Of a stretch of 52,425 nucleotides of DNA, positions 1,674 through 50,794 are shown in pieces. A model generated the notes under the pieces. That model had not been told where the DNA came from, ran no database searches, and worked only from the letters and a program-made list of their open reading frames with translations. Every line of letters begins with the position of its first letter. The first letter of the stretch is position 1. The position numbers were made by a program, and so were the translations under genes. This stretch comes from a virus (taxonomy: Duplodnaviria > Caudoviricetes), in IMG/VR virus record IMGVR_UViG_3300033508_000175, positions 1 to 52,425 of that record; one strand, written 5' to 3'.

Positions 1674-4600
1674 TTATGCTTTCGGCTTGATGTTAGCAAC
1701 GTAGCTCTCGTCGGGAGGGAGCATGAGAACGGTGAACTCGGTCGTTGAACCATCATTCTTTGTTTCCATGAGCATGAAGCGCTGCCCGGGGATGGTGGTG
1801 ATCTCGCCCTCGCCGTTGTAGCTCCCGACGCCAATGTTGTAGAGCGCCTTCGCTCCCTTGGCATAGACGATCTTCAATCTGGCATTACCACCCCAGGACC
1901 AATTCTCATTGATGCTGCAGCACATGCTGCCCGGGTTCTGGAATACGTGCCCTGGAGGCAAAGCCATCATCTGCTTCAGCATCGCATCCGGCATCGAAAT
2001 CCCCTTGGTGATCCGGGTGCCCTCGTCCAATTCTACAGCGTGGGCGTAGGCGTCTGTCAGCACATCGCGGGCTTTCAAGCCGCTGTTGTCGATCTCCTTA
2101 CCCTCCCGATATGGGGTGTTGTATGAGCCCGACTGTTTCACTGCGGCCATCCATTTCTTGAGGATAGCGGTCATACCCTTGGTTGACGCCACCCCCTTTG
2201 CCTTGCCAGCAGCAGAAATGTATTCAACCTTTGGCGGCATGAATTCCTTCGCAGCATCAGCCTGCCCCAAGCTGATCCAGAAGCCCAGGCGCTGGTTGGC
2301 TGGCACTTGACCGACTGTGACGCCGTAATAGTGCGCCTTGAAGCCGTCCGACAGTTCATTGATGTCGGAGTAGTCGCCAATATCCCACGACTTCGCCTTC
2401 TTAGCGGCCGGGTTGGCGACAACTTCCATGTAGTCCAGAACGGTCGAATAGAAGTCTTTGACGTGCTGGCTTGGGTGATCACCAAACAGCGCGCCCTCTT
2501 TGACCGCGCCAGTTGCCTTGTCAACGATGTGGAACTTCAGCTTTTTCAGCGCCACAAAGTCTCCATTCATGGCCGCCGTATAAATCTGATCGACTGCCGC
2601 CTGGTTAACCTCATTGACCTTAGCTGTGCCAGACAAGCCCTGCCCCGCACCCTTCCAATTCAAAAAGTCGAGCTTCTTAGGCAGACTCGAGGTGTCAACC
2701 GGCAGCTTTCGCGGGTCGGGCTTGGGCGGGTTCACGATCAGATCGGCTCCCGGGTACTTCTTGGCCAGGTCGTTCTTGCGAGCAATCAGCTTGGCGGCCA
2801 GCGCAGCCTTCGCGGCATTGTTGCCAGGGCCGAACTTGGACACGATCTGCTGAATGATGTCATCTGGCACGTCCAGCACCAGGGCGACGGACTCGTTGAG
2901 CTTTTCCTTGGTGATGGTGGAGAACACCGAGGCTCCAAACTGGTTCTTTGCCGCATCGCGCATGGCGTCAATCTCGACAACTTCATTGCCGAAACCGTCG
3001 CCTTTGGGCGCACCCTGCGCGCGGTACAGCAGCGAGCCTCCCACGTCGATGCGGATCGCCTTACCGTCCTTGGTTTTCAGCAAGTTGTCATAGCCGGTGC
3101 CCACCGAGTCGTAGTTACCGAGCCAGGCATCAACCGCGAAACCTTCCATGGCGCCCGAAGCATTCTTGATGCCAGCGCCGACCTTTGTCACGCCGTCAAC
3201 AATCTTCGATGCAATCCCGATCTTGCCGTCCTTCTCGACCATGCGCAACGTTGGCACGTCAACACCAGCGGCCTTGTAGAGCTTTGATGCGAGCAACTCG
3301 TTCTTGACGTGATCTTCAGACGCAGGGAACTTGCAGTACCACTCCTGCCCGTTTTTGTCCTTGAACTTGCCGCCAGGGTTGGATCCCTTCTGCGGGCCAG
3401 TCTGAGCCCAACCATCGATCACAGTGACACCAGGCTTGCCAGGTGGGGCGGTGACAAAGACCTTGGCCTGTGGCGCAGCCTGTGCGGGTTTTGTGGCCGT
3501 CGCTGCAGGCTTTGGCATCGCACCAGGCGCGGCCGTGGTGAATGCGACCTTCTTGCCCTTGGGCGTCTTCTGGGCTTCGGCTTTCAGGGCCATCACCAGT
3601 TTGAACATAGCGTCCTGGCGGGCCTTCTTCTGAGGTGGGCTTGGGTGCGCGTTGCCAGTCAGCCCTTTCAACTTTGTGCCAGGGACATCGACTGTGATGC
3701 TGCCATTTTTATGGAACACGACCAGCTTCTTGAGCCCGGCCAGGCCATCACTCGCCACGGCAGCGGTCAGCACAGAAGCGACATTGGCATACATCGTCCC
3801 GTACTTGCCCGGGGAAAGGGACTCAAAATCCGGAACCACTACCCCTTGCTTGTGCCAGCGGCCGTTCTTGAACACCAGCGTGCCGCCATCGACGGCCAGC
3901 TTGGTATCGCCGTCCTTGGGGCCAGAGGCCGGGTCAAGGGATTGAATGTCGGCAGCCAAGGGGAACGGCAGGCCCGCGTTGTTGCCCATGATGTACTGGC
4001 CCATCTGCGCAGCCGCGTCCTGGGCATCGGAGTAATCGCTGTGCTCCACAGGGTTTCCTTCAGGGTCAATGACCCCTACCTGAAACACCTTGACGCCGTA
4101 GGGGCTGTCGGTTTTCGCAACGTAGTAGGTGTAGCCGTCCTTGGTTTCCTGCGTCAAAGAAGGCGCACCACTGAGAACCCCGTCGGACGGGTCGAGCTTC
4201 CAGCCACCGGACAGATGTTTGATCTTTCCGCTCTGCTGTTCGGCAAGCAGCTTCTCCAGGTAGCCTTTCACCTCCAGCTTGAGCCCACCGGTGTCCAGAA
4301 TTTCCTGCAAGGTCTTGAAGTCACCCTGCGCCGCCAGCTTGTCGAATTCAGCCTTCACCTGGGGCGGCACACCCGCGACCTTGGGTGCAGCAGGCGCAGC
4401 GGGCGGTACCGGCGCTCCGGCCTTGTGCTCGTACTCATGCGTGCCAAGGCTATCAAGTTTGTACCCCTTGGCTTTCTTTTCATAGATCAGCTTTGCAGCA
4501 GCCGCACCGGCAGCACTTGGCGACGCAAACTCCTTGGTCGTGGTGGACCCCATGGTCCCGATCTTCCCGTAGGTGGTCTTCATGACATTGCCATGGGTGG

Positions 4601-7391
4601 ACACCGACCAGAACTTATTGTGGCCCGGGGTGGTGTTCATGAACACCTGGGACGTGACCTTGGTCGTGGCATTGGCCTCGGCGTGCTTCTTGGCCGCCTG
4701 CGCGCTGACCCAGCCCATGAACAGGTTGAGCTTTTCGGGGCCGTAGAACTCGATGGCCTTGGCTACATCCACCTTTTCCTCGTCTGACAGCTTCTCGAAG
4801 GCAGCAATCTCTGGCGGATCCAGCAGATCGTCAATCGGCAGGCCCTGCGCAGCCTTGCCACCGTGCATCTTGAACATGGTGATGAAGCTGAGAACGTCCG
4901 GGTTGGTCTTGAACTTGTCCTTGTGGGTGTTGACCGGTGCAGGCGCAGCGACAGGCGGGGCCGTCACGAACACCTTGGCGGGCTCGGCGGGCTTCACCGG
5001 GGTCATGGTCACATTGCCAGATGCCGGGAAAGCCCCGGCCTTCACTGCCTTGGCGTGCGCCTGCGACACCAGCACAGCCAGCTTGTCGCCGCCGATCACC
5101 CCCTGGACCTCGGCGAGCATCTTGCTCGCCTTGGCCGAGTCCTGCGACGCCAGGACAGCAAACGCCTTGACCTCGCCCGGGGTTGGTACCTGACCGGCCA
5201 GCATGTGCTTCTTCCAGCCTGAGACAGCCGCAGCCTGCGACGCAGCGCCCTGCAGCGCCTGGTACTTGGCCTGGGCCAGGTCATGCTGCTGGGTCGGGTG
5301 CATGGCGTGCCAGGCGGGACCGTGCTCGGCCTTCAGCTTCTTGATGGCCTCTTTCTGATAGAAAGCGCCGCCCTCCATGGCAGCCACAGCGGCCTTGTGC
5401 TTGGCGGTGTCGTCGGCCTGGACGGCAGCAGCGACCGCGTTGGCAGAGTTTCCGGGGCCGGTGCTGGGCTTGACAACCAGCGCAGCCGCAAGCTCGGCTT
5501 CTTTTACCCAGCCTTTGTACCAATCGTTCATGGCCTCAATCGTTTGGCTTGAGCTGCCAACCAGACCACCGTCAACGCCATAAACAGCGACAAAATCCGG
5601 GTCAGCCGCTGGAACCTTGATGCCTGCAGCATGGGCATACGCCCCAAACTTATGCGCAGTCAGGATGATCCCTGTTGCGCCGACCCGGTGCCATTTGCCG
5701 TTGTGCAGCGCATAGGTCTTGCCGTTTTCCGTCTTGGTGTCGCCCTCTTTGGGGCCAGCAGCGACCGCAGGACCACCAGGCAGGGCATGCCCCAGGTCCA
5801 GCGCGTACTTCATCAGGGCGAGCGTGTCGGGGTCGTTGCCCAGCGCCGGGTTGGCTTTCATGTTCCCGGCCAGCGTCGTGATGCTGGCCGTGAGCCCTTT
5901 CAGATCCCCACTGTCGTACATTTTTGCCCATTGCTTCGCAACCAGGCCATGGTTCATGTCGGTGAACTTGGGCGGTGGCGGGGCCTTGTGCGATGCCTTG
6001 GCCGCCTCGAACGCCGCCTTTGAAGCCGCCTTCTTCTCCAGATACCGAACGCCAGCCTCGGCATAGGCCAGCGCGGTCTTGGCGCTGACGCTGCTCATGC
6101 CGGTGAGGTTGAACACCGCATCCTTCAACTGCTCTGAATTGCCGTCCTCAATCCAGTTCTCGATGTCTGTGATGGTGGACTGGAACGCAGGAGGCTCGGG
6201 CTTGATCGGGAAGCCGTCGTGGGTGTGCTTGATCTTGATCGGCTCCTCTTTGGCGACCACCACCGATGGCGCGCCTTTGACCTTCATGTAAGGTGCCCAC
6301 TGCAGAAACTTGGTGTAGCCAATCTTGCCGCCAGGCTTGGTGACGGCCACCTCATGCGCCAGTTTGACGTGCGGGATGCCGCCATGCAGCACCACCTTGC
6401 CCTCGTAGTGGTTTGCCGACAGGAAGGCCCCGGTCATGGTGAACGCGACCGTGTCGCCCAGCTTCACCCCGGCAGCGTTCATCTCAGCAACCAGCGCCGC
6501 GCCGGTCTCGGCCTTCTTGTCGTCAAACTCCTTCTTCACCACGGCATAGGCAGCCTTGACCTTCGGGTAGGCATAGTGGAATTCGTGGGACGACTGAAAG
6601 TCGGACTTGGACATGCCAAGCGCCTTCGCCCGCGCGGCGATCCAAGCCTGCGCCTCGGCATAGTCGGCAAAGTCGGGCGCTGGGGCGAAGGTGGTCGGCC
6701 CGATCTTGCCAAGCATGGCCGGGACGGTGATGGGCTGCGGCTCTGGCGTGCTTACCGCTGCTTGACCCGCGACACCAGGCTCTGCGACTTCTGCGGGCTT
6801 TGCAGGCCCGAAGGCTGGGGCTGCTGCGCCTCCTTGGGTTTGTCCCGGCGCGCCAGTTTCGACGGCTTCAACGGTTTTAGGCTCATTGGTTTTTCCTTTG
6901 GTTTGGTTGGCTTTGGCAGAAGCCGCAAACAGCAGCTTCATGTACTGGCTTTCTCCGATGGCCATCGAGCAGGCATCCGCCACAGCGCCCTGGACCAACG
7001 TCGAGGCGTTCTGCATGGCGAAATACTGCGCTGGAGTGGGCACCTTGCCAGCGAGCATGGATGACTTGAAGCCAGACACCGCAGCCGATGCGCTGGCGGC
7101 CAGCTGCAACTCAGTGGCGTGCGAGAGGATGACGGCTGCCTTTTCCTCGGGGTGCATCGTGTTGAAGTGGTCCAACTCTGTGGACAGCTTCTTGTGCGCC
7201 TGTTTTTGGTAAAACGATCCGTAGCCAGACGCGACATTCAGATCGTTGTGGTCGTCTGATACCAGCACTTTCTTCTGGTACGGACTAACCCAGTTTCCGC
7301 CGTGAACGTGGCCGGGGACCGTGATGGTTTTGTAGTGGGAAGCCTTGAGCAAGTCCTCGCGGACAAATAGAACTGCGGACATTGGGTTCAT
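1674..7391 (-). CDS. large polyvalent protein: internal repeats + WGR + HipA/PI3K-like kinase + ADP-ribosyltransferase-like domain
   Basis: NKFWSV...YGKIG...KLIYEKKAKGY (WGR); GSNPGG...WYCKF...NELLASKLY...DAWLGNYD...DNLL...IDVG (kinase); C-terminal TKG...SMCCS...EGEI (ART-like). Confidence 0.75.
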   Translation of the reverse strand: MNPMSAVLFVREDLLKASHYKTITVPGHVHGGNWVSPYQKKVLVSDDHNDLNVASGYGSFYQKQAHKKLSTELDHFNTMHPEEKAAVILSHATELQLAASASAAVSGFKSSMLAGKVPTPAQYFAMQNASTLVQGAVADACSMAIGESQYMKLLFAASAKANQTKGKTNEPKTVEAVETGAPGQTQGGAAAPAFGPAKPAEVAEPGVAGQAAVSTPEPQPITVPAMLGKIGPTTFAPAPDFADYAEAQAWIAARAKALGMSKSDFQSSHEFHYAYPKVKAAYAVVKKEFDDKKAETGAALVAEMNAAGVKLGDTVAFTMTGAFLSANHYEGKVVLHGGIPHVKLAHEVAVTKPGGKIGYTKFLQWAPYMKVKGAPSVVVAKEEPIKIKHTHDGFPIKPEPPAFQSTITDIENWIEDGNSEQLKDAVFNLTGMSSVSAKTALAYAEAGVRYLEKKAASKAAFEAAKASHKAPPPPKFTDMNHGLVAKQWAKMYDSGDLKGLTASITTLAGNMKANPALGNDPDTLALMKYALDLGHALPGGPAVAAGPKEGDTKTENGKTYALHNGKWHRVGATGIILTAHKFGAYAHAAGIKVPAADPDFVAVYGVDGGLVGSSSQTIEAMNDWYKGWVKEAELAAALVVKPSTGPGNSANAVAAAVQADDTAKHKAAVAAMEGGAFYQKEAIKKLKAEHGPAWHAMHPTQQHDLAQAKYQALQGAASQAAAVSGWKKHMLAGQVPTPGEVKAFAVLASQDSAKASKMLAEVQGVIGGDKLAVLVSQAHAKAVKAGAFPASGNVTMTPVKPAEPAKVFVTAPPVAAPAPVNTHKDKFKTNPDVLSFITMFKMHGGKAAQGLPIDDLLDPPEIAAFEKLSDEEKVDVAKAIEFYGPEKLNLFMGWVSAQAAKKHAEANATTKVTSQVFMNTTPGHNKFWSVSTHGNVMKTTYGKIGTMGSTTTKEFASPSAAGAAAAKLIYEKKAKGYKLDSLGTHEYEHKAGAPVPPAAPAAPKVAGVPPQVKAEFDKLAAQGDFKTLQEILDTGGLKLEVKGYLEKLLAEQQSGKIKHLSGGWKLDPSDGVLSGAPSLTQETKDGYTYYVAKTDSPYGVKVFQVGVIDPEGNPVEHSDYSDAQDAAAQMGQYIMGNNAGLPFPLAADIQSLDPASGPKDGDTKLAVDGGTLVFKNGRWHKQGVVVPDFESLSPGKYGTMYANVASVLTAAVASDGLAGLKKLVVFHKNGSITVDVPGTKLKGLTGNAHPSPPQKKARQDAMFKLVMALKAEAQKTPKGKKVAFTTAAPGAMPKPAATATKPAQAAPQAKVFVTAPPGKPGVTVIDGWAQTGPQKGSNPGGKFKDKNGQEWYCKFPASEDHVKNELLASKLYKAAGVDVPTLRMVEKDGKIGIASKIVDGVTKVGAGIKNASGAMEGFAVDAWLGNYDSVGTGYDNLLKTKDGKAIRIDVGGSLLYRAQGAPKGDGFGNEVVEIDAMRDAAKNQFGASVFSTITKEKLNESVALVLDVPDDIIQQIVSKFGPGNNAAKAALAAKLIARKNDLAKKYPGADLIVNPPKPDPRKLPVDTSSLPKKLDFLNWKGAGQGLSGTAKVNEVNQAAVDQIYTAAMNGDFVALKKLKFHIVDKATGAVKEGALFGDHPSQHVKDFYSTVLDYMEVVANPAAKKAKSWDIGDYSDINELSDGFKAHYYGVTVGQVPANQRLGFWISLGQADAAKEFMPPKVEYISAAGKAKGVASTKGMTAILKKWMAAVKQSGSYNTPYREGKEIDNSGLKARDVLTDAYAHAVELDEGTRITKGISMPDAMLKQMMALPPGHVFQNPGSMCCSINENWSWGGNARLKIVYAKGAKALYNIGVGSYNGEGEITTIPGQRFMLMETKNDGSTTEFTVLMLPPDESYVANIKPKA

Positions 7392-10189
7392 TCCTTGGAG
7401 TTGTCGGTACCGAGAATCAGCGCGCGCTCGTCGTCCAGCTCGGGGTCTTCACCGTCGAACTCGGCGGCATTGCCTGCCAGGAAGTGCTGGCGGCCAGTGG
7501 CCTCATCCTTGACGATGGACCCGGCCTCGCCCGCCTCGACGGTGGTCAGCGTGCGCTCGGCGCGCTGCTTGTGGCCCAGAAGGGCATCCCACGGCACCCC
7601 AACGCGGCCAGACTTGTGCTCGGCAGTGAAGCCATCAGCACCATAGGCCAGCACCTTGCCGGACGTGGCCCCATGCTGCGGGTGATGGAAGAACACCTCG
7701 TCGTGGACGCCGACACCGTAGCTGGACGGGTGCGGCTTGGCTTCTTCATTCTCTGGCTGGCCGCGTTTGGCGGCAGCCAGCAGTGATGACGTGGGGATGG
7801 CCTTCGCAAACACATCAACGTTGACAACGGAAACAGCATCGGCATAATAGACATTGAGCGGCTCAACCGCCTGCTGAACGATTGAAAGGTCACAGGACGG
7901 TATCTGGTGTTTGAGGGCAAACAACTCTCCACCGGGATTTGAGTCGCTCTTTTTCATTTGAGGCGCAACAACATGAATCGACACAACGTGGTTGTGGTCG
8001 TCCTTGGCCTTGAACCGACTGGCAGCGTAAACCACGGTCTCACCATCGAATCTCGGGCGCTGCCACTCCCAACGCACCGGGTCTTCATTTGCGTCAAGAG
8101 CAATCGATGACGGCATAGTCCTCAAGACTTCCGGCAAAGCCATCACGTCCCCGCGCGTGACCCGCATACCGTCAGGCTTGCCAGACTTCTCGCCGTGACG
8201 CCAGATCACCTTGACCATGCCGCTGCCTTTGGTGGTGCCGAACTGGCGACTTAACCGTTTTCCCGTGACCTCAATGCGACCATCGCCAGCCTCAACCGAT
8301 GGGCCGTGCTCCATCTGCACACGAAGGTCGTCCTCCCCCATGTTGACCAGCATGGAGTCCGGCGAGGCAAGCGGGTACTTGCGCGTGAAGTTATAGAGAT
8401 CACGAAGGCTGCGCTTTTCCATCCGTACTTGGTGCGTTCGCCCGATGAATTGCCCCGTCACGAGGTCATGCTCGTCGTTCGCCTTGCGCATCGGCTGATC
8501 GCCAGGATCAGCCCCAGGATCGGCCTGTTGCTGCGCCTGGCCAGGTTGCTCATCCTCGCCCGCGTCATCGCCGGGTGCGCCATCGTCGCCAGCCTGGTCG
8601 CCATCTTGGCCGCCAAAGCCGGGCGCTTGGTCGGCCGATTGCATGTCGGGCCCTGGTTGCTGGGCGGCCTGCTGCGTCTGCGACCACGGACCAATCAGCG
8701 ACGGGTTCAGCGGAGCCTCCCCCCATGAGTCGGTTTGCGCATCCAGGCCCAGCTCGGCGCGCATTTCGTTCACCGACATGACCAGCTTCTTGAGTTCGTG
8801 CCGTTTGTCCTGGTCGTCCTCGTCCACGCCGGTCCAGCGGAACACATACGAGTCGCCAAAGTCGGCCAGGATGTAGTCGCTGAACAGGCTCTCGTAGTAG
8901 GCCAGCAGCGGGCGCAGGCCCGAGTCCTTGGACGCGGCCAGCTTTTCAGCCGTGTCGGAGCCGCCCAGCGGCGAGGTGTTGCCACCAGAGAAGCTGTCGA
9001 AGTTGATCTCGGCCGGGCTCATGCCGTAGATGGCGCAGATGATCGAGGTCAGGAATGTCATCCACTTGCTGAACTGCATTTCGTCGAACGAAACGCCGAA
9101 GTTTTCAAACGCCGCCTTCGACTCCTGATCCTTGGACACCAGCACCGGCACCGACCAGGCGTTGTTCACACCTTTGACCATGCCGTTCCAATAGCGTTTG
9201 AAGCTGGCCAGGTCGGACTCTGAATAATTGCCAGACAGGTGCAAGACGCCCTTGGGGATGGAGTTGTCCGAGAAGCCCCGGATGTTGAGCGTCATGGCAT
9301 TCAAAAATCCGGTCACCACCTTGACCAGCAGCTCAGTCTCGGACAGCCCGTAGCCAGACGCCATCACGTCGGTGCGAGGGTTGCGCGGCTCGTAGATCAA
9401 GCCGTTGTAGTCATAAGCCGTGCGGACGTTGCCCTGGACCACCTGAAGCGCGAAAATCTCGTCGTTCTCGCGGTAGCCCTCGTCGGTGCAAAGCCGGATG
9501 GTGGCGCCGTCCACAGCGTAAAAGCCATCAATGCCCAGCGCCTTGTTGCGCTTCATTTCCGTCTCGATCGGCGCGGAATCCATGGCCAGCGAGTCGCGCA
9601 CCGACAGCGCAATGAACTGGCGCAGCGACTGGCGGCCCAGGCGCTTGCGCTGGCGAGGGTTGAACTCCCAGCCGGTGTTCAGGAAGAACCGCTGCAACAG
9701 CTCAGTGGTCTTGCGCTCGTCGTCGGTCAGCTTGTGCGCCTTGTCAGCGTGCCGGATGACAAAGCCAGGCCCAAAGCCGGACTCTTGGACCTTGCAGAAC
9801 GCCTGTACCTGGCGCACGCGGGTCATCACCACAGCAGATAACACCGGGGTCTGTTCGACCATGCCGCGCAACACAGTGAAGTTCATGGCGCCAGGGCGCT
9901 CGACATACTCGCCCGTGATGGCGTAGTTCAGGTCATCCACCACAATGGACTGGACGCCCTTCTTGCCCGCATTCTTGCTTGGGAACGGCACGACCGTGCT
10001 GGACGCCTTGACCAGCTCCTGCTCTTCAAAGCCCTTGACCATGAAGTCGATCAGGGGTTTTAAGTGCTCTGGCGGGATCAGGCTGGACCGGTCAATGTGG
10101 GCGCTTTGCAGCTCGGCCTGCGCATCAAAGCGTTCAGCCTCGGGCGCGGACGGGTCAAAAGCAGTGGTGGCGGTGGATTTTTGGCTCAT
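7388..10189 (-). CDS. portal protein with C-terminal inserted BECR-like RNase domain
   Basis: Portal core (VDGATIR, YGLSETE, PKGVL, DEMQFSKW, SVNEMRAELGL) then acidic linker, RHGEK...TRGDVMALPEVL domain and a terminal beta-rich domain; lies just downstream of terL and the lysis genes. Confidence 0.85.
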   Translation of the reverse strand: MSQKSTATTAFDPSAPEAERFDAQAELQSAHIDRSSLIPPEHLKPLIDFMVKGFEEQELVKASSTVVPFPSKNAGKKGVQSIVVDDLNYAITGEYVERPGAMNFTVLRGMVEQTPVLSAVVMTRVRQVQAFCKVQESGFGPGFVIRHADKAHKLTDDERKTTELLQRFFLNTGWEFNPRQRKRLGRQSLRQFIALSVRDSLAMDSAPIETEMKRNKALGIDGFYAVDGATIRLCTDEGYRENDEIFALQVVQGNVRTAYDYNGLIYEPRNPRTDVMASGYGLSETELLVKVVTGFLNAMTLNIRGFSDNSIPKGVLHLSGNYSESDLASFKRYWNGMVKGVNNAWSVPVLVSKDQESKAAFENFGVSFDEMQFSKWMTFLTSIICAIYGMSPAEINFDSFSGGNTSPLGGSDTAEKLAASKDSGLRPLLAYYESLFSDYILADFGDSYVFRWTGVDEDDQDKRHELKKLVMSVNEMRAELGLDAQTDSWGEAPLNPSLIGPWSQTQQAAQQPGPDMQSADQAPGFGGQDGDQAGDDGAPGDDAGEDEQPGQAQQQADPGADPGDQPMRKANDEHDLVTGQFIGRTHQVRMEKRSLRDLYNFTRKYPLASPDSMLVNMGEDDLRVQMEHGPSVEAGDGRIEVTGKRLSRQFGTTKGSGMVKVIWRHGEKSGKPDGMRVTRGDVMALPEVLRTMPSSIALDANEDPVRWEWQRPRFDGETVVYAASRFKAKDDHNHVVSIHVVAPQMKKSDSNPGGELFALKHQIPSCDLSIVQQAVEPLNVYYADAVSVVNVDVFAKAIPTSSLLAAAKRGQPENEEAKPHPSSYGVGVHDEVFFHHPQHGATSGKVLAYGADGFTAEHKSGRVGVPWDALLGHKQRAERTLTTVEAGEAGSIVKDEATGRQHFLAGNAAEFDGEDPELDDERALILGTDNSKE
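7821..7848 (+). promoter_or_regulatory. antisense sigma70 promoter inside portal gene
   Basis: TTGACA (7821-7826), 16-nt spacer, CATAAT (7843-7848). Confidence 0.7.
7855..7954 (+). ncRNA. putative structured small RNA antisense to the portal linker
   Basis: 5' GAGCGGCTCAA (7856-7866) pairs with TTGAGTCGCTC (7939-7949), followed by TTTTT; two internal hairpins; begins about 7 nt after the -10. Confidence 0.6.
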
Positions 10190-46706: not shown

Positions 46707-46722
46707 AGTGTTGCGTCACGAC
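46707..46722 (-). promoter_or_regulatory. late promoter motif (baseplate operon; probably leaderless)
   Basis: GTCGTGAC-gc-AACACT, 6 nt before the ATG. Confidence 0.7.
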
Positions 46723-48557
46723 ACCAAAGCCTTCTGTTTGGCGGCTGCTTCGGCTTGGTATTTAGCCATCTTTTCTTTGACGCCCGCCATGAAGGCGTCG
46801 TACTTGGCCGGGTCAACACCGGAGAATGGTAGCCAACGGCCGCGGCAATGCGGGTGCTGGGCGCCAGCCGCGATCCACCACAGCTCGTCTGGCTCGCGGT
46901 CGTACAGCTTGCCGTCGACCCGCTTCTTGGGCGCCGACGACCGGCCGATGTTGGTCTTGCCCGCCCAAATCTCGTTCATGCCGTCTTTGTTCGGCTTGGC
47001 CGGATCCACCACCGTGACCACCCGGCCGTCGATCTTGTGGCACCAGGCGCAGACGCCTTTGTACTGCTCGATGCGTTTGAGCTTGGCGCCTTTTTCTCTG
47101 GCAGCCACCACCCCCTGCGCGGCATTTTCTGACACCTCGGTGACCGCGATGCGCCGCCAGTCGCGGTTGGCCGCGGCGAACTTGTCGAACAGGCGCTGCT
47201 CCAGGCTTTGCGGCTTTCCGCCCAGGATCAAGTTCTGCTGATGGTCCAGGATCACCGAGCGCACACCGGATCGCAGCTGGTCGCCCATGTCCACAATGGC
47301 CTGCGCACACCGCTCGCGCGCAAAAGCGATCATGGCCTGCGTGACCTTGGAGACTGGCAGGCCCAGCTCCACAATGGCCGGGATGCTGGTGGGCATGGCC
47401 GCCGCCACACCAGCGGCCAGCAGCGCACTCGGTGGGTTGGCGGCCAGGCCAGCCTCGATCTGCCCGAGCAGGGTGGACTTGACCGACAGCCAGTCGGCCA
47501 TGCTGGACGCCCACTGCGGGCTCCAGTATTGCTGCAGCAGCCACTCGACCAGCATCGAATAATCCTCGGGCAGCCACAGCGCGCGGGGTTTGGAGTGGAA
47601 ATAGGCGCTCCAGGCAGACAGCTCGGTCGGAGTCCAGTGCACCGGCACGTCGGGCATCAGCAGGGCCGGTAGCGCATTCTTTTTGTGGGGTTGACCGTGG
47701 GCCGCGAGCCAGCCGGAAAGAGCCTCCTTGAAGGACTGGAGGTGGGCTTGGCCGGTGTGGGTGAAGGCTTCGACCAAGTCGCTCAAGTAGGGCGAATCGA
47801 ACGGTGCCCAGATGTCGTGTTCGTGGCTTGGCTTGATGGCCTTGCCTAAATAGGTTCCTTGATTTTCGACAACATCATCATCCATGTGAGTCTTGCATAA
47901 ACGCCAAGAATCCGCGATACTTTCGTTGTGCATGCCGTTACCAACCAGAAATGGCGGTAGCCACCGAAGGGAGTCCCCCGACTCAGTAGAGTTATGAAGT
48001 TCGGCGAACACGGTTGATGGCCCACTCTTTTGCAGTGGGCCTTCGTTTTTAGGGTCTTGATGCGCGCTAAGGTATTTCACCTCATTGATGGATTTGAAAT
48101 GGGCGCTGTGAAACTCATACACTTTTGCAACTGGTCGCCACGTCAGAACAATGGTGTACTGATCGCCATCCACGGGCGCTTCAAACATCAAATCAGCATG
48201 AAGGTTGCGTGATCTGTGCTTGGGGTACTCAATAACATTGAGTATTCGCTCCATTGCTTTTGCGCGCCTCGAATCGAATGAACGGACTCCTGTTTTTTGC
48301 TTCCCGCCCATATCAGATGAGTAAGCATGATCGTTCTTCGGGTCGAATCGGACCTTGATCGGTATTGGCTTCTTTTCTCGGTCTGAAAAATGAACATTCA
48401 GGCTAATCGTTTTCCCGCCATAGTTATCCGCCCAGTATTGATGCGCCACCTCCTGTGAGTCGATGTCTTTGCTTGAAGCGACATGCGTGCCGTCGGGTGG
48501 CGATTTCCAGCCAGAACCCGGGCCACCTTTGATAAACAGAATTTTGTGCTTTTCCAT
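46716..48557 (-). CDS. MuF/gp7-like head morphogenesis protein with N-terminal BECR-like RNase domain
   Basis: NRDWRRIAVTE, CAWC, HPHCRG (MuF); lower-GC N-terminal domain DHAY...RRAKAMERI..VIEYP...FHSAH; frame open up to 48629. Confidence 0.8.
   Translation of the reverse strand: MEKHKILFIKGGPGSGWKSPPDGTHVASSKDIDSQEVAHQYWADNYGGKTISLNVHFSDREKKPIPIKVRFDPKNDHAYSSDMGGKQKTGVRSFDSRRAKAMERILNVIEYPKHRSRNLHADLMFEAPVDGDQYTIVLTWRPVAKVYEFHSAHFKSINEVKYLSAHQDPKNEGPLQKSGPSTVFAELHNSTESGDSLRWLPPFLVGNGMHNESIADSWRLCKTHMDDDVVENQGTYLGKAIKPSHEHDIWAPFDSPYLSDLVEAFTHTGQAHLQSFKEALSGWLAAHGQPHKKNALPALLMPDVPVHWTPTELSAWSAYFHSKPRALWLPEDYSMLVEWLLQQYWSPQWASSMADWLSVKSTLLGQIEAGLAANPPSALLAAGVAAAMPTSIPAIVELGLPVSKVTQAMIAFARERCAQAIVDMGDQLRSGVRSVILDHQQNLILGGKPQSLEQRLFDKFAAANRDWRRIAVTEVSENAAQGVVAAREKGAKLKRIEQYKGVCAWCHKIDGRVVTVVDPAKPNKDGMNEIWAGKTNIGRSSAPKKRVDGKLYDREPDELWWIAAGAQHPHCRGRWLPFSGVDPAKYDAFMAGVKEKMAKYQAEAAAKQKALVS
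47893..47921 (+). promoter_or_regulatory. antisense sigma70 promoter inside the MuF-like gene
   Basis: TTGCAT (47893-47898), 17-nt spacer, GATACT (47916-47921). Confidence 0.65.
47928..48050 (+). ncRNA. putative structured small RNA antisense to the MuF linker
   Basis: Hairpins 47933-47956 and 47971-47984; stem CCGAA/TTCGG; ends in an intrinsic terminator. Confidence 0.6.
48019..48050 (+). terminator. intrinsic terminator of the antisense RNA
   Basis: GGCCCACT-7nt-AGTGGGCC then TTCGTTTTT. Confidence 0.75.
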
Positions 48558-48649
48558 AACTGCCTTTACGCGCCCTAGACAAGGAGTCGCGGCACGCCAG
48601 TCAGGCAGAACCGGCTTTCGGCAGATCAAGACCTAGCCGCGACACCAGG

Positions 48650-48665
48650 ATGGTGGTGTCACGAC
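48650..48665 (-). promoter_or_regulatory. late promoter motif (MuF-like gene)
   Basis: GTCGTGAC-ac-CACCAT. Confidence 0.7.
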
Positions 48666-49438
48666 ACGCTGGCAATCGCGCTGGTCACCTCGGTCTGGAG
48701 CATTTGCTTGGCCTGCTCGGAAATCGCTCTAACGATGAACGTGCCAGGCTTGGCCGGGATGACCCAGCCGGTGGACCATTCGCCGAGAATTCTGAACGTA
48801 AGGTACGAACTAGACTGCTGCCCGCCGCTTGATGTGTTGAACCTCACCATGCCCTTGAACCGCTTCGGGATGTCCGCACCGTCCAGCCGATCGCCCCAGG
48901 CATAGGTGTTGCGCATGGTCATCAGCGGCCCCTTGGTGCGCAGGCTGGAAGCCCCCAGGCCCGAGCGCATCGACACCTTGCCAGTCACTGTGGACTTGGT
49001 CATCTGCTTGGCCTGCTCGTACACCGCCTGCGGCATGGCCCCGGCCAGCGCCGTGTTGCCGGGCGTGTTGTGCCGCATTGGAATTATGAGATACCGCTGG
49101 CCAGCGTGCTTGCCCCCCTTGGCAACCCGCACCTTTGCCGAGGTGTCCAGTGCCTTCTTCTGGTCGCGCGCCGGGAAGCCATTCTCAACCAGCGAGGACA
49201 CCGGGTCGTCTGAATAGATCCTGGCCCCCATGCGGTCCGGGTCAAATTCGACCTTGATGCTGGCCGCGTACCGGTCCTTATAGAACGACGGGACGCCGGG
49301 CGAGCGCAGCACGGTCTCGTACCAGGCCGCGTAAGTGGTCACCGCCGTGGTTTGCACCGCCTGGGCGATGGCCGCCTCAAGCTGGGCGTGCAGCCCTTTG
49401 ATCAGGGACGAGGCGTTGAACGATACCGAGTAGCTCAT
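48659..49438 (-). CDS. neck/tail-completion protein
   Basis: Y..SI...ENG..ARDQK...YLIIPMRH...YLTFR; position among neck genes. Confidence 0.6.
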   Translation of the reverse strand: MSYSVSFNASSLIKGLHAQLEAAIAQAVQTTAVTTYAAWYETVLRSPGVPSFYKDRYAASIKVEFDPDRMGARIYSDDPVSSLVENGFPARDQKKALDTSAKVRVAKGGKHAGQRYLIIPMRHNTPGNTALAGAMPQAVYEQAKQMTKSTVTGKVSMRSGLGASSLRTKGPLMTMRNTYAWGDRLDGADIPKRFKGMVRFNTSSGGQQSSSYLTFRILGEWSTGWVIPAKPGTFIVRAISEQAKQMLQTEVTSAIASVS

Positions 49439-50154
49439 CGGCCAAATACAGGATTTAACTGCCCGACATCAAACTCCCAGAAAAACCCTTTGTGGGTGCG
49501 CTGTTTGTTGTTGCAGCACTTGCTAATGGGGCCATTGTCAAAGCCAGACTCTCTCGCCATCCTCATTGATTCAAACCGAAATGGATGACCCCCACCAAAC
49601 TCAGGGAATGCAACAACTGGACGACTGGCTGGGTTCAAACTTCCTCGGACTCCGTACTGACTGTTTTTATCGCCCATTCTGGCAAGGGCCATTCTTGCGC
49701 AGGTGCTTTCAGGTAGAGGTTTTCCGGTCCGATTAGCAGACAACTTTGCACGAGTCGCCTTCGAGTGAGAGTTCCCATATCTCGGGTTTTTCTCGCCACG
49801 GCGAGATATGCTCATCTTTTGTCTTGTGGCCAACGACAGCTTAATACCGCGTGTTGTTGAAGGATTCGCACAAATGTTCATGCAATAAGGGCTCTCAATC
49901 ATTTCTGATAGCCACCACGCCTCTAGGTCATCAAGCTCAGATATTGCGCAAGTTTCTATCACCTCGAAGGTGAAACATTCTGGACCGTATTTATTCCAAT
50001 GCCTCTGAAGAATTTCATTGTCGTGGGTGCCACGAACAAGAGTTGACCGATGGCAGTTCATTCTTCTTTGAACATGGCAAGATTGACCAACGTAATACTT
50101 CCTCCTGATTGGCGTGTTTACGGTGATCAAATAGATGCCGATTATTTTTCCCAT
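49435..50154 (-). CDS. GIY-YIG homing endonuclease with NUMOD3/NUMOD1-like repeats
   Basis: GIYLI...YYVGQS...R...H.N..LQ; S.ATR.KMS repeats; low GC. Confidence 0.9.
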   Translation of the reverse strand: MGKIIGIYLITVNTPIRRKYYVGQSCHVQRRMNCHRSTLVRGTHDNEILQRHWNKYGPECFTFEVIETCAISELDDLEAWWLSEMIESPYCMNICANPSTTRGIKLSLATRQKMSISRRGEKNPRYGNSHSKATRAKLSANRTGKPLPESTCARMALARMGDKNSQYGVRGSLNPASRPVVAFPEFGGGHPFRFESMRMARESGFDNGPISKCCNNKQRTHKGFFWEFDVGQLNPVFGR

Positions 50155-50164
50155 AAAAACGGCT

Positions 50165-50794
50165 TCAACGATTGAATAAGTCAAACCTGCGAAGCTGCGC
50201 CCGCTTCGGCAAGGCCGCGCCAAAGTGGTGACCCCGGTCGGTCGGGAACTCTTGAAACACGAAGTACTCGCTGTACTTGGTGCCGGTGACCGAGTAAGCC
50301 ACACCAGCCGGTGGCGCGCCATCGGCGAACACCAGCGCGCCGGTGGCGTCTTGCACAGGAATGCCGCCTTCCACAATGTCGGCCCCCACGATCCAGAACA
50401 CCCGGTCGATCTTTTTGGCCGTCCAGGGCAGCTTGTCGTTGTGGCCTTTGCGCAGGTTGATGGAGAACGGGTCGTCCCCGTTCAACTGCATCACCCGGTC
50501 GCGCTCGCCCATGCCGTACAGGGGTGAGTCGCTGCCCACCGTCAGCATCATGTCGCCACTTTCCCATTGGCCCAGCTTGGCAAACTCGCGCTGCACTTTC
50601 TGGCTTGGCACGCCAGCGACACCGGTCACAGCGGCCGTCCACATGAACCCTTTGCCGTGGCAGTGCGGGCACGACGGCTGGGGCGCGTTGGTGGATGGGC
50701 TCACGCAGGGGCAGACAAAGGCCTTGCGCCAGGCGAAGGTCTGGCCGATGTGGTTCAGGAGCCCGTTGAAGGCAAGTGGGTCGAGCTGCATCAC
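50165..50794 (-). CDS. neck protein with CPC...CxxC motif
   Basis: W.KA..CPC......P...CPHCHGKG, as in Twort/SPO1-like neck proteins. Confidence 0.65.
   Translation of the reverse strand: MMQLDPLAFNGLLNHIGQTFAWRKAFVCPCVSPSTNAPQPSCPHCHGKGFMWTAAVTGVAGVPSQKVQREFAKLGQWESGDMMLTVGSDSPLYGMGERDRVMQLNGDDPFSINLRKGHNDKLPWTAKKIDRVFWIVGADIVEGGIPVQDATGALVFADGAPPAGVAYSVTGTKYSEYFVFQEFPTDRGHHFGAALPKRAQLRRFDLFNR

Follow-up and report, generated by a model that had tools for sequence, protein, structure and literature searches.

An antisense RNA gene of a new structured family behind a PBECR-like domain in a phage MuF-like head protein gene

In type I toxin-antitoxin systems with a convergent, 3′-overlapping antisense RNA, such as txpA/RatA and bsrG/SR4 of Bacillus subtilis, the RNA has its own promoter and terminator, a protein antitoxin is absent and the system is often prophage-borne. 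The OOP RNA of phage lambda, directed against cII, is a short cis-antisense phage RNA which overlaps the 3′ end of a protein gene, its target being the gene of a regulator. According to the prevailing view, polymorphic and polyvalent phage effectors either are held in check by protein immunity factors or go unopposed. Here we describe an antisense unit in the viral record IMGVR_UViG_3300033508_000175 (Caudoviricetes), whose entire length of 52,425 bases was analysed and is referred to as the window; its completeness is estimated at 53%. The unit, a predicted small RNA (sRNA) gene, lies wholly within the linker-coding part of the open reading frame (ORF) of a MuF-like minor head protein, on the opposite strand, and directly behind an N-terminal PBECR-like domain with which it is exchanged as a cassette (Table 1).

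For the type III toxin-antitoxin systems ToxIN, CptIN and TenpIN, the accessible text of two reports (PMC8860590, PMC3475682) describes a structured RNA paired with an endoribonuclease-type protein on which the RNA acts. In the accessible text of Iyer et al. 2017 (PMC5512222), PBECR appears as an RNase domain, metal-independent by prediction, that is either fused to MuF or portal proteins or embedded in giant polyvalent ones; its packaging and injection are presumed. Temperate phages also encode MuF polymorphic toxins accompanied by protein immunity genes, the subject of Jamet et al. 2017 (PMC5576092). No antisense, small, noncoding, structured or antitoxin RNA is mentioned in the main text of the PBECR study (PMC5512222), nor does the accessible text of a recent preprint (bioRxiv 10.64898/2026.08.28.747851) mention an RNA antitoxin, antisense or type III; literature searches returned no published account of an RNA partner for such domains.

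The MuF sRNA corresponds to RatA and SR4 in its convergent orientation, its own promoter and intrinsic terminator, its complementarity to the partner transcript and the absence of a protein antitoxin. In contrast to type I systems, its partner is a soluble domain of about 170 residues with a putative RNase-like fold within a virion protein and not a small hydrophobic membrane peptide, and the RNA gene resides inside an ORF encoding a linker and has a conserved multi-helix structure. With OOP it shares the character of a short cis-antisense phage RNA but it is, unlike OOP, part of a mobile domain cassette. The combination of a structured non-coding RNA with an RNase-like protein, predicted in the case of the MuF domain, recalls type III systems as far as the accessible descriptions go, whereas the MuF unit lacks tandem repeats, is convergent instead of co-directional with a terminator in between, has a domain of a fold unrelated to that of the type III toxins and has no conserved pseudoknot. 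Fusion to MuF, portal and polyvalent proteins agrees with the accessible description of PBECR by Iyer et al. 2017 (PMC5512222), although no Pfam PBECR family is matched at threshold. As in the MuF toxins of Jamet et al. 2017 (PMC5576092), in the part of that work accessible, the MuF protein carries a variable module exchanged as a cassette; here, however, the module is N-terminal and its sole co-exchanged partner is an RNA gene and not an immunity protein.

The antisense unit and its relatives

Relatives of the RNA were gathered by a related-locus search combined with a degenerate 32-nucleotide pattern spanning the hairpin. Ten distinct elements were obtained, namely those of the window, L003 (on the same contig as L009), L005 (the same element as L004), L006 (equal to L007 and L008), L011, L012, L013, L015, L016 and L019, among which L015, L016 and L019 are contigs of metagenome-assembled genomes labelled as Methylococcaceae, an uncultured gammaproteobacterium and Methylococcus, respectively. 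Five further loci (L010, L017, L018, L020 and L021) were dropped as chance matches, having neither similarity beyond the 32-nucleotide pattern nor the domain. Among viral contigs the class-A pattern gave no match and the RNA-core pattern returned L012 only.

A promoter pattern TTGnnn-N17-nAnnnT is present at the aligned site of the antisense strand in all ten loci, with positions 2 and 6 of the -10 box kept in 10/10 and the spacer unconserved. For comparison, shuffled strands of 252 nucleotides contained 0.12 such hits each, and the ten sense strands two hits in total. The element ends in all ten loci with the same hairpin and T-tract, and the compensatory changes between A-U and G-C pairs in this hairpin fall on positions that are synonymous in the ORF. 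The seed alignment A5, consisting of the seven class-B sequences among the ten, has a consensus of 7 helices with 41 pairs; 91.9% of its cells pair compared with 32–50% in slid controls, and 13 of the 41 pairs change on both sides compared with 3–5 in these controls. A covariance model (R1) built from the seven seed sequences recovered the three elements left out of it, that of the window at 47948-48051 on the plus strand (40.2 bits, E=7e-10) and those of L003 (46.1 bits) and L006 (49.8 bits), and in addition found a second, partial copy in L019. In alignment A7, whose 11 rows were fitted to the model and which leans towards it, 93.7% of the cells pair and 25/41 pairs change on both sides (5–11 in slid controls). 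The antisense strand is marked out as the RNA strand by its excess of G-U over A-C cells (56 to 8). The RNA family also contains an invariant unpaired motif, CGAAAGACCGAAGG.

A preliminary description made from the letters of this stretch had listed the promoter, the stem and tail of the terminator, the segments CAACC (47942-47946) and GGTTG (48012-48016) and a 21-codon ORF (47932-47997), all of which were found where it had placed them. The pseudoknot it considered possible between CAACC and GGTTG is not kept in the relatives; a pairing between CCGT (47936-47939) and ACGG (48009-48012), which covaries in 3/3 sequences, takes its place. The suggested likeness to type III antitoxins is weakened by the lack of this pseudoknot and by the absence of tandem repeats from the region 47600-48700. 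The 21-codon ORF, offered there as an alternative to an RNA, was rejected as unconserved, since L003 and L016 have no ORF of at least 10 codons. A different short ORF, M..TGLLPVG, occurs in 4/7 class-B RNAs and is absent from L005, L011 and L016.

The element is conserved irrespective of the reading frame in which it is translated. Matches confined to the linker (residues 124-219) were obtained with several proteins at 68–71% identity, adjoining quite different sequence. The ORF that contains the L005 element uses frame 0 of it, whereas P0036 (score 115) corresponds to frame 1 and P0021 and P0010 to frame 2; P0006 and P0052 match the window linker in frame 0 towards its two ends and in frame 1 between them. 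Since different proteins thus read the element in all three frames, its conservation is attributed to the nucleic acid and not to the protein level. In L016 the stop codon of the ORF comes right after the hairpin and the element continues beyond it; five representatives of the domain family end exactly at ...GPL, which would place their stop codon in the hairpin loop. On the ORF strand the terminator of the window reads KNEGPLQKSGP. The sense triplet CAA, corresponding to TTG of the -35 box, is invariant while the encoded residue varies between K and N, which argues against a protease site as the reason for the conservation of the -35 position.

The comparison of the ten loci shows that the plus-strand unit is to be regarded as a genuine sRNA gene with its own predicted sigma-70-type promoter and intrinsic terminator, and that the RNA, as judged from alignment and covariation, represents a new structured family, whose conservation lies in the nucleic acid and which is swapped along with the domain. 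On these comparative grounds the existence of the unit is confirmed as more than chance, and the antisense RNA gene directly behind the domain, as proposed in the preliminary description, is borne out by the promoter pattern and the hairpin in 10/10 loci each and by covariation. By its position the RNA is complementary to the fusion mRNA, which is one of the properties by which type I systems are recognised. R1 was positive in only 2 of 64 genomes of the family of G001, both already known, and this sporadic occurrence is as expected of a mobile element. Several searches for known elements gave negative results: the window element agreed with no Rfam family at E<=10 and those of seven loci with none at E<=1, ARAGORN found no tRNA or tmRNA, and patterns of 12 and 15 nucleotides for the element motifs detected in the window no second copy, only the known site and mismatched matches at chance level.

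Table 1. Positions of the antisense units, the cassette and the fusion ORF (window coordinates unless a locus is named)
Feature	Position	Strand	Basis or remark
Sigma-70-type promoter of the antisense sRNA, TTGCAT-N17-GATACT (-35 at 47893-47898, 17-nucleotide spacer, -10 at 47916-47921)	47893..47921	+	sequence; pattern kept in relatives
Predicted sRNA, about 120 nucleotides	47928..48050	+	start placed from the -10 box; covariance model, covariation
Intrinsic terminator, 8-bp stem GGCCCACT/AGTGGGCC, 7-nucleotide loop, tail TTCGTTTTT	48019..48050	+	stem 48019-48041, tail 48042-48050
Cassette block, domain and whole sRNA gene, about 686 bp	47866..48551	.	absent from close relatives; diverged allele in L012
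Core of the low-GC PBECR-like domain (about residues 25-170)	48048..48485	-	GC content, AF2 model, relatives; PBECR signals weak
Fusion ORF, 613 residues	46716..48557	-	ATG at 48557; ORF list and translation
MuF-like core	46716..47865	-	common to relatives without the cassette
Portal antisense unit: promoter, structured RNA of about 100 nucleotides, U5 tract	7821-7962	+	sequence; kept in L022
Third antisense unit, TTGAAT-N17-CATACT, then 15-bp hairpin and U6 after about 130 nucleotides	L015 6505-6672	+	by eye, then folded

The cassette and its N-terminal domain

In the fusion ORF an effector-like domain at the N-terminus is joined through a linker to the core of a MuF-like minor head protein. 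The cassette is located in frame just after the start codon and contains no protein-coding partner and no protein immunity gene. Contigs of relatives in the runs X2, X3 and X4 join positions 47865->48551 or 47867->48555; contigs of the same three runs also join 47863->48658, and X6 joins 47860->48658, with about 21–24 other letters in between. These joins across the block reveal close relatives of the MuF-like gene devoid of both the domain and the sRNA gene. The contigs of X3, X4 and X6 do not cover 48016-48391, a gap that is uninformative on expression; contigs carry no information on the strand. In the sister phage L012, blastn alignment gives 76% identity up to 47858 and 89.5% from 48550 onwards, while in between only the hairpin (48016-48050) matches; the L012 domain is 38% identical to that of the window and the L012 RNA belongs to class B, a different subtype. 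One and the same locus thus exists empty and with two diverged cassette alleles, and the joint absence as well as the joint divergence in L012 imply that domain and sRNA gene move as one cassette. In the ten loci a complete domain lies directly before the terminator in 7/10, a remnant in 1/10 (L015) and none in 2/10 (L011 and L019).

The two junctions of the cassette (47866-47872 and 48551-48557) share a short GAAAA, with ATGGAAAA at the start and TCGAAAAT at the end, so that the joint positions are ambiguous by 2–4 nucleotides; this suggests an insertion by microhomology. In L019 the RNA copies are arranged in tandem (1513-1657 and 1750-1873, plus strand), the second one lacking a terminator, and ORFs resembling HicA/HicB, as judged by eye, are found nearby. 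L011 carries the RNA at 4033-4174 (plus strand) and, in the other orientation, a 51-residue N-terminal fragment of the domain.

The N-terminal domain stands out by its base composition, with a GC content of 0.47–0.51 compared with 0.62–0.70 in the MuF core. A lower-GC, BECR-like domain at about 48060-48520 had been postulated in the preliminary description; the low GC content was verified, while the core had to be shifted to the boundaries in Table 1 and assigned to the N-terminus of the MuF-like protein. The AlphaFold2 (AF2) model of the domain has a predicted local distance difference test score (pLDDT) of 87.1 and a predicted template modelling score (pTM) of 0.79, and predicts disorder from residue 179 onward. 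Its secondary structure, with helices (H) and strands (E) in the order H96-110, E114-118, E121-125, E132-141 and E146-156, closes with a pair of helices and then a set of four strands, which additional strands precede. Such an order would suit a BECR core, in which a four-stranded antiparallel sheet comes after helices, although Foldseek gave no significant match in the PDB. The residue corresponding to His77 is nearly invariant among the relatives, and Ser151 and His153 are invariant among the close ones. According to the accessible text of bioRxiv 10.64898/2026.08.28.747851, PBECR-type BECR proteins have a conserved histidine before the helices and another on the last strand; the order of elements and the conserved His77 and Ser151/His153 are consistent with this description and with that of Iyer et al. 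2017 (PMC5512222), the comparison being one of topology and residues.

When the first 235 residues were run against the full library with HMMER, 58 representative relatives were obtained, 40 of them at E<=1e-10; three of the 58 (P0034, P0054 and P0059) are long repeat proteins and apparently unrelated. The domain occurs among these relatives as a stand-alone protein or at N-terminal, internal or C-terminal positions in proteins of up to 1798 residues, its fusion partners being polyvalent proteins, portal-like proteins (P0031, P0055) and MuF-like proteins (P0014, P0044). In BFVD, parts of phage polyvalent proteins rank highest (E=2.5e-3 to 6e-2), and the nearest Atlas clusters, to be taken as leads only (scores 0.87–0.89), bear the labels PBECR3, PBECR1, MuF_C and LPD3 on 10–24% of their members. 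Pfam PBECR1-5 and MuF_C were not matched at gathering score; scans of the single members of alignment A3 gave weak matches to PBECR2 (E=0.1) and MuF_C (E=0.067), each in 1/29. A profile search of PDB sequences returned solely the portal chain 9b41_L (E=0.017), on an N-terminal stretch, and no relatives were obtained with a single-protein query of viral contigs or an alignment query of genome contigs. The relatives and the structural model make the domain a candidate PBECR/BECR-type RNase.

The same layout is encountered in the portal gene of the window (7388-10189), where the opposite strand carries TTGACA-N16-CATAAT, matching the consensus at 11/12 positions, behind an inserted domain. Its sole DNA relative, L022 (57% amino acid identity), has TTGACT-N16-CATAAT with a diverged spacer and retains the closing stem and the U5 tract; 6/36 pairs are compensatory between these two sequences, the only ones available for comparison. 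The MuF and portal domains have no similarity to each other, and R1 finds no match at the portal. The third unit in Table 1, in L015, lies behind a further, distantly related MuF-type domain, the second copy in that locus (L015 7186-6749, minus strand). The RNA sequences of the MuF, portal and L015 units are mutually unrelated. The correspondence of layout between the MuF and portal genes with unrelated sequence, pointed out in the preliminary description, is thereby upheld for the portal and extended by L015. An unpaired GAAAG(A/G)(C/U)C is seen both in the portal RNA (7870-7885) and in class-B RNAs (e.g. L012 6325-6340), which may be a coincidence or a shared recognition site.

Function of the RNA and competing explanations

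On the basis of these comparisons we consider it slightly better than an even bet (probability roughly 0.55) that the domain is a virion-carried PBECR/BECR-type RNase effector and the convergent sRNA its dedicated brake or antidote. In this scenario the RNase-type effector would be carried in the virion and injected, and the sRNA would restrain it in the cell that carries or produces the phage. A temperate lifestyle with a lysogenic phase, in which restraint of the domain would matter, is possible since the window encodes a tyrosine recombinase/integrase (PF00589; 36484-37674, minus strand; 77.7 bits). Mechanistically, the RNA might pair with the complementary linker or 3′ part of the domain mRNA, in the style of type I systems with 3′ overlap, or might bind the domain protein directly; we lean towards the latter, as the helices are conserved and the unpaired motif is invariant.

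Several observations weigh against this proposal. Judged from the window alone, the unit is not convincing because its promoter agrees with the consensus at 7/12 positions and is not called by a consensus scan, terminator-like sites are not enriched in the region (11 found, 9.0 expected), and single-sequence folding is better for the ORF strand (z=-3.63) than for the plus strand (z=-2.09); the hairpin with its T-tract is called by the consensus scan. The small size of the sample, the relatedness of its sequences and the leaning of alignment A7 towards its model have to be taken into account likewise. At the end of the domain a motif xG[PS]LxK is kept in 30/58 representatives, and as these include distant proteins, selection at the protein level may contribute to the conservation of the hairpin. 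Strict coupling is contradicted by the RNAs without an adjacent domain in L011 and L019 and by the mere remnant in L015, and His153 is replaced by tyrosine in the clade of L012 and L013. With respect to RNase identity, a Pfam scan of the window domain gave no family at E<=10 and Foldseek no match in the PDB at E<=1e-3, HigB and Cami1 appearing at E of about 1. The portable, in-frame cassette of RNase and RNA envisaged in the preliminary description is thus retained as to portability and frame, and its RNase part lacks a Pfam or Foldseek match at threshold.

Among the competing explanations a plain cis-antisense regulator like OOP of lambda, which would adjust how much domain-MuF mRNA is present or when, as by shutting off leaky late transcription, with the domain being no toxin in need of an antidote, is unlikely but deserves serious attention. 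The full positional complementarity to the mRNA linker, the placement of a sigma-70 promoter inside a late structural gene and the unproven toxicity of the domain would all fit such a regulator. However, MuF relatives without the domain also lack the RNA, the RNA accompanies the domain in its moves to unrelated host genes and to stand-alone genes, and its conserved helices and unpaired motif exceed the needs of simple antisense action.

We regard as quite improbable a phage sRNA that acts independently in trans, or as an anti-defence decoy, and that merely occupies a permissive disordered linker with no functional tie to the domain. The copies without domain in L011 and L019, in tandem in the latter, could be explained in this way, and the invariant unpaired CGAAAGACCGAAGG could serve as a seed or binding site; yet the terminator overlaps the last codons of the domain or its remnant in 8/10 loci, domain and RNA are gained, lost and swapped together, and three unrelated RNA types are found at the same place behind three domain types.

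Still less credit is given to the RNA as a cofactor or cargo, required by the domain, perhaps a catalytically weak RNA binder, as partner, guide or packaged ribonucleoprotein, since to our knowledge the convergent overlapping arrangement is typical of antagonists and not of cofactors. The co-inheritance of a structured RNA with an RNA-directed fold would be compatible with such a role, as would the prediction by Iyer et al. 2017 (PMC5512222) that the PBECR of Mu gp30, which is inactive, binds RNA. That no RNA is made at all, the conservation being due to protease sites (L-x-K and then S/G/A) in a peptide linker or to DNA that directs recombination of the cassette, with the promoter and terminator look-alikes as by-products, is highly implausible, for although xGPLxK and hydrophobic-x-K-[STA] motifs coincide with the hairpin and the -35 box and conserved DNA at the ends of the cassette could be of use in recombination, translation of the element occurs in all three frames and the element is kept past a stop codon, its CAA is invariant while the residue is K or N, its seven helices covary with a G-U excess on the antisense strand, and positions 2 and 6 of the -10 box are kept in 10/10 loci.

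If the sRNA is indeed the co-mobile partner of an injected RNase-type effector, an RNA-based layer of immunity would be added to the polymorphic and polyvalent effector systems, the conserved linkers behind such domains would be explained, and a class of sRNA genes inside ORFs, missed by gene callers, would come into view. The two cassette alleles at one locus together with the unrelated portal pair would offer a testable set for the question of how injected RNases stay harmless in the producer cell. A wider generalisation, which we put forward tentatively and with considerable doubt, is that PBECR-type effectors of virion and polyvalent proteins are generally policed by cognate structured antisense RNAs in the linker, one RNA family per domain family, which bind the protein directly, and that orphan or tandem copies in bacterial genomes, as in L011 and L019, protect cells against effectors injected by incoming phages. 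If true, this would constitute a repeat-less relative of the type III systems.

The MuF-like core and neighbouring features

The C-terminal part of the fusion protein (about residues 237-590) is 35–41% identical to proteins of about 360–390 residues from myophages of roughly 90 kb (15 matching records), some of which are annotated as 'minor head protein'. The core homologues of Bordetella phage PHB04 and Yersinia phage fHe-Yen8-01 are encoded downstream of the portal gene and lack the N-terminal part. The Pfam family Phage_Mu_F (PF04233) scores below its gathering threshold on the core (E=0.2; 12.8 bits compared with a cutoff of 29.6). Because of the annotation of the homologues and their position after the portal gene, 'MuF-like' appears reasonable as a label for the core, though not as a statement of Pfam membership.

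Window and L012 agree at 89.5% of positions in the 5′ leader of the MuF-like gene, which contains in both an int-alpA RNA motif (Rfam RF02996), at 48573-48643 (minus strand, 38.1 bits) in the window and at 6961-7033 (minus strand, 38.7 bits) in L012, the gathering score being 35.8. Two genes upstream of the MuF-like gene lies a GIY-YIG/NUMOD3 homing-endonuclease gene of low GC content (49435-50376, minus strand), supported by matches to NUMOD3 (E=6e-13) and PHROG 314 (E=2.6e-26).

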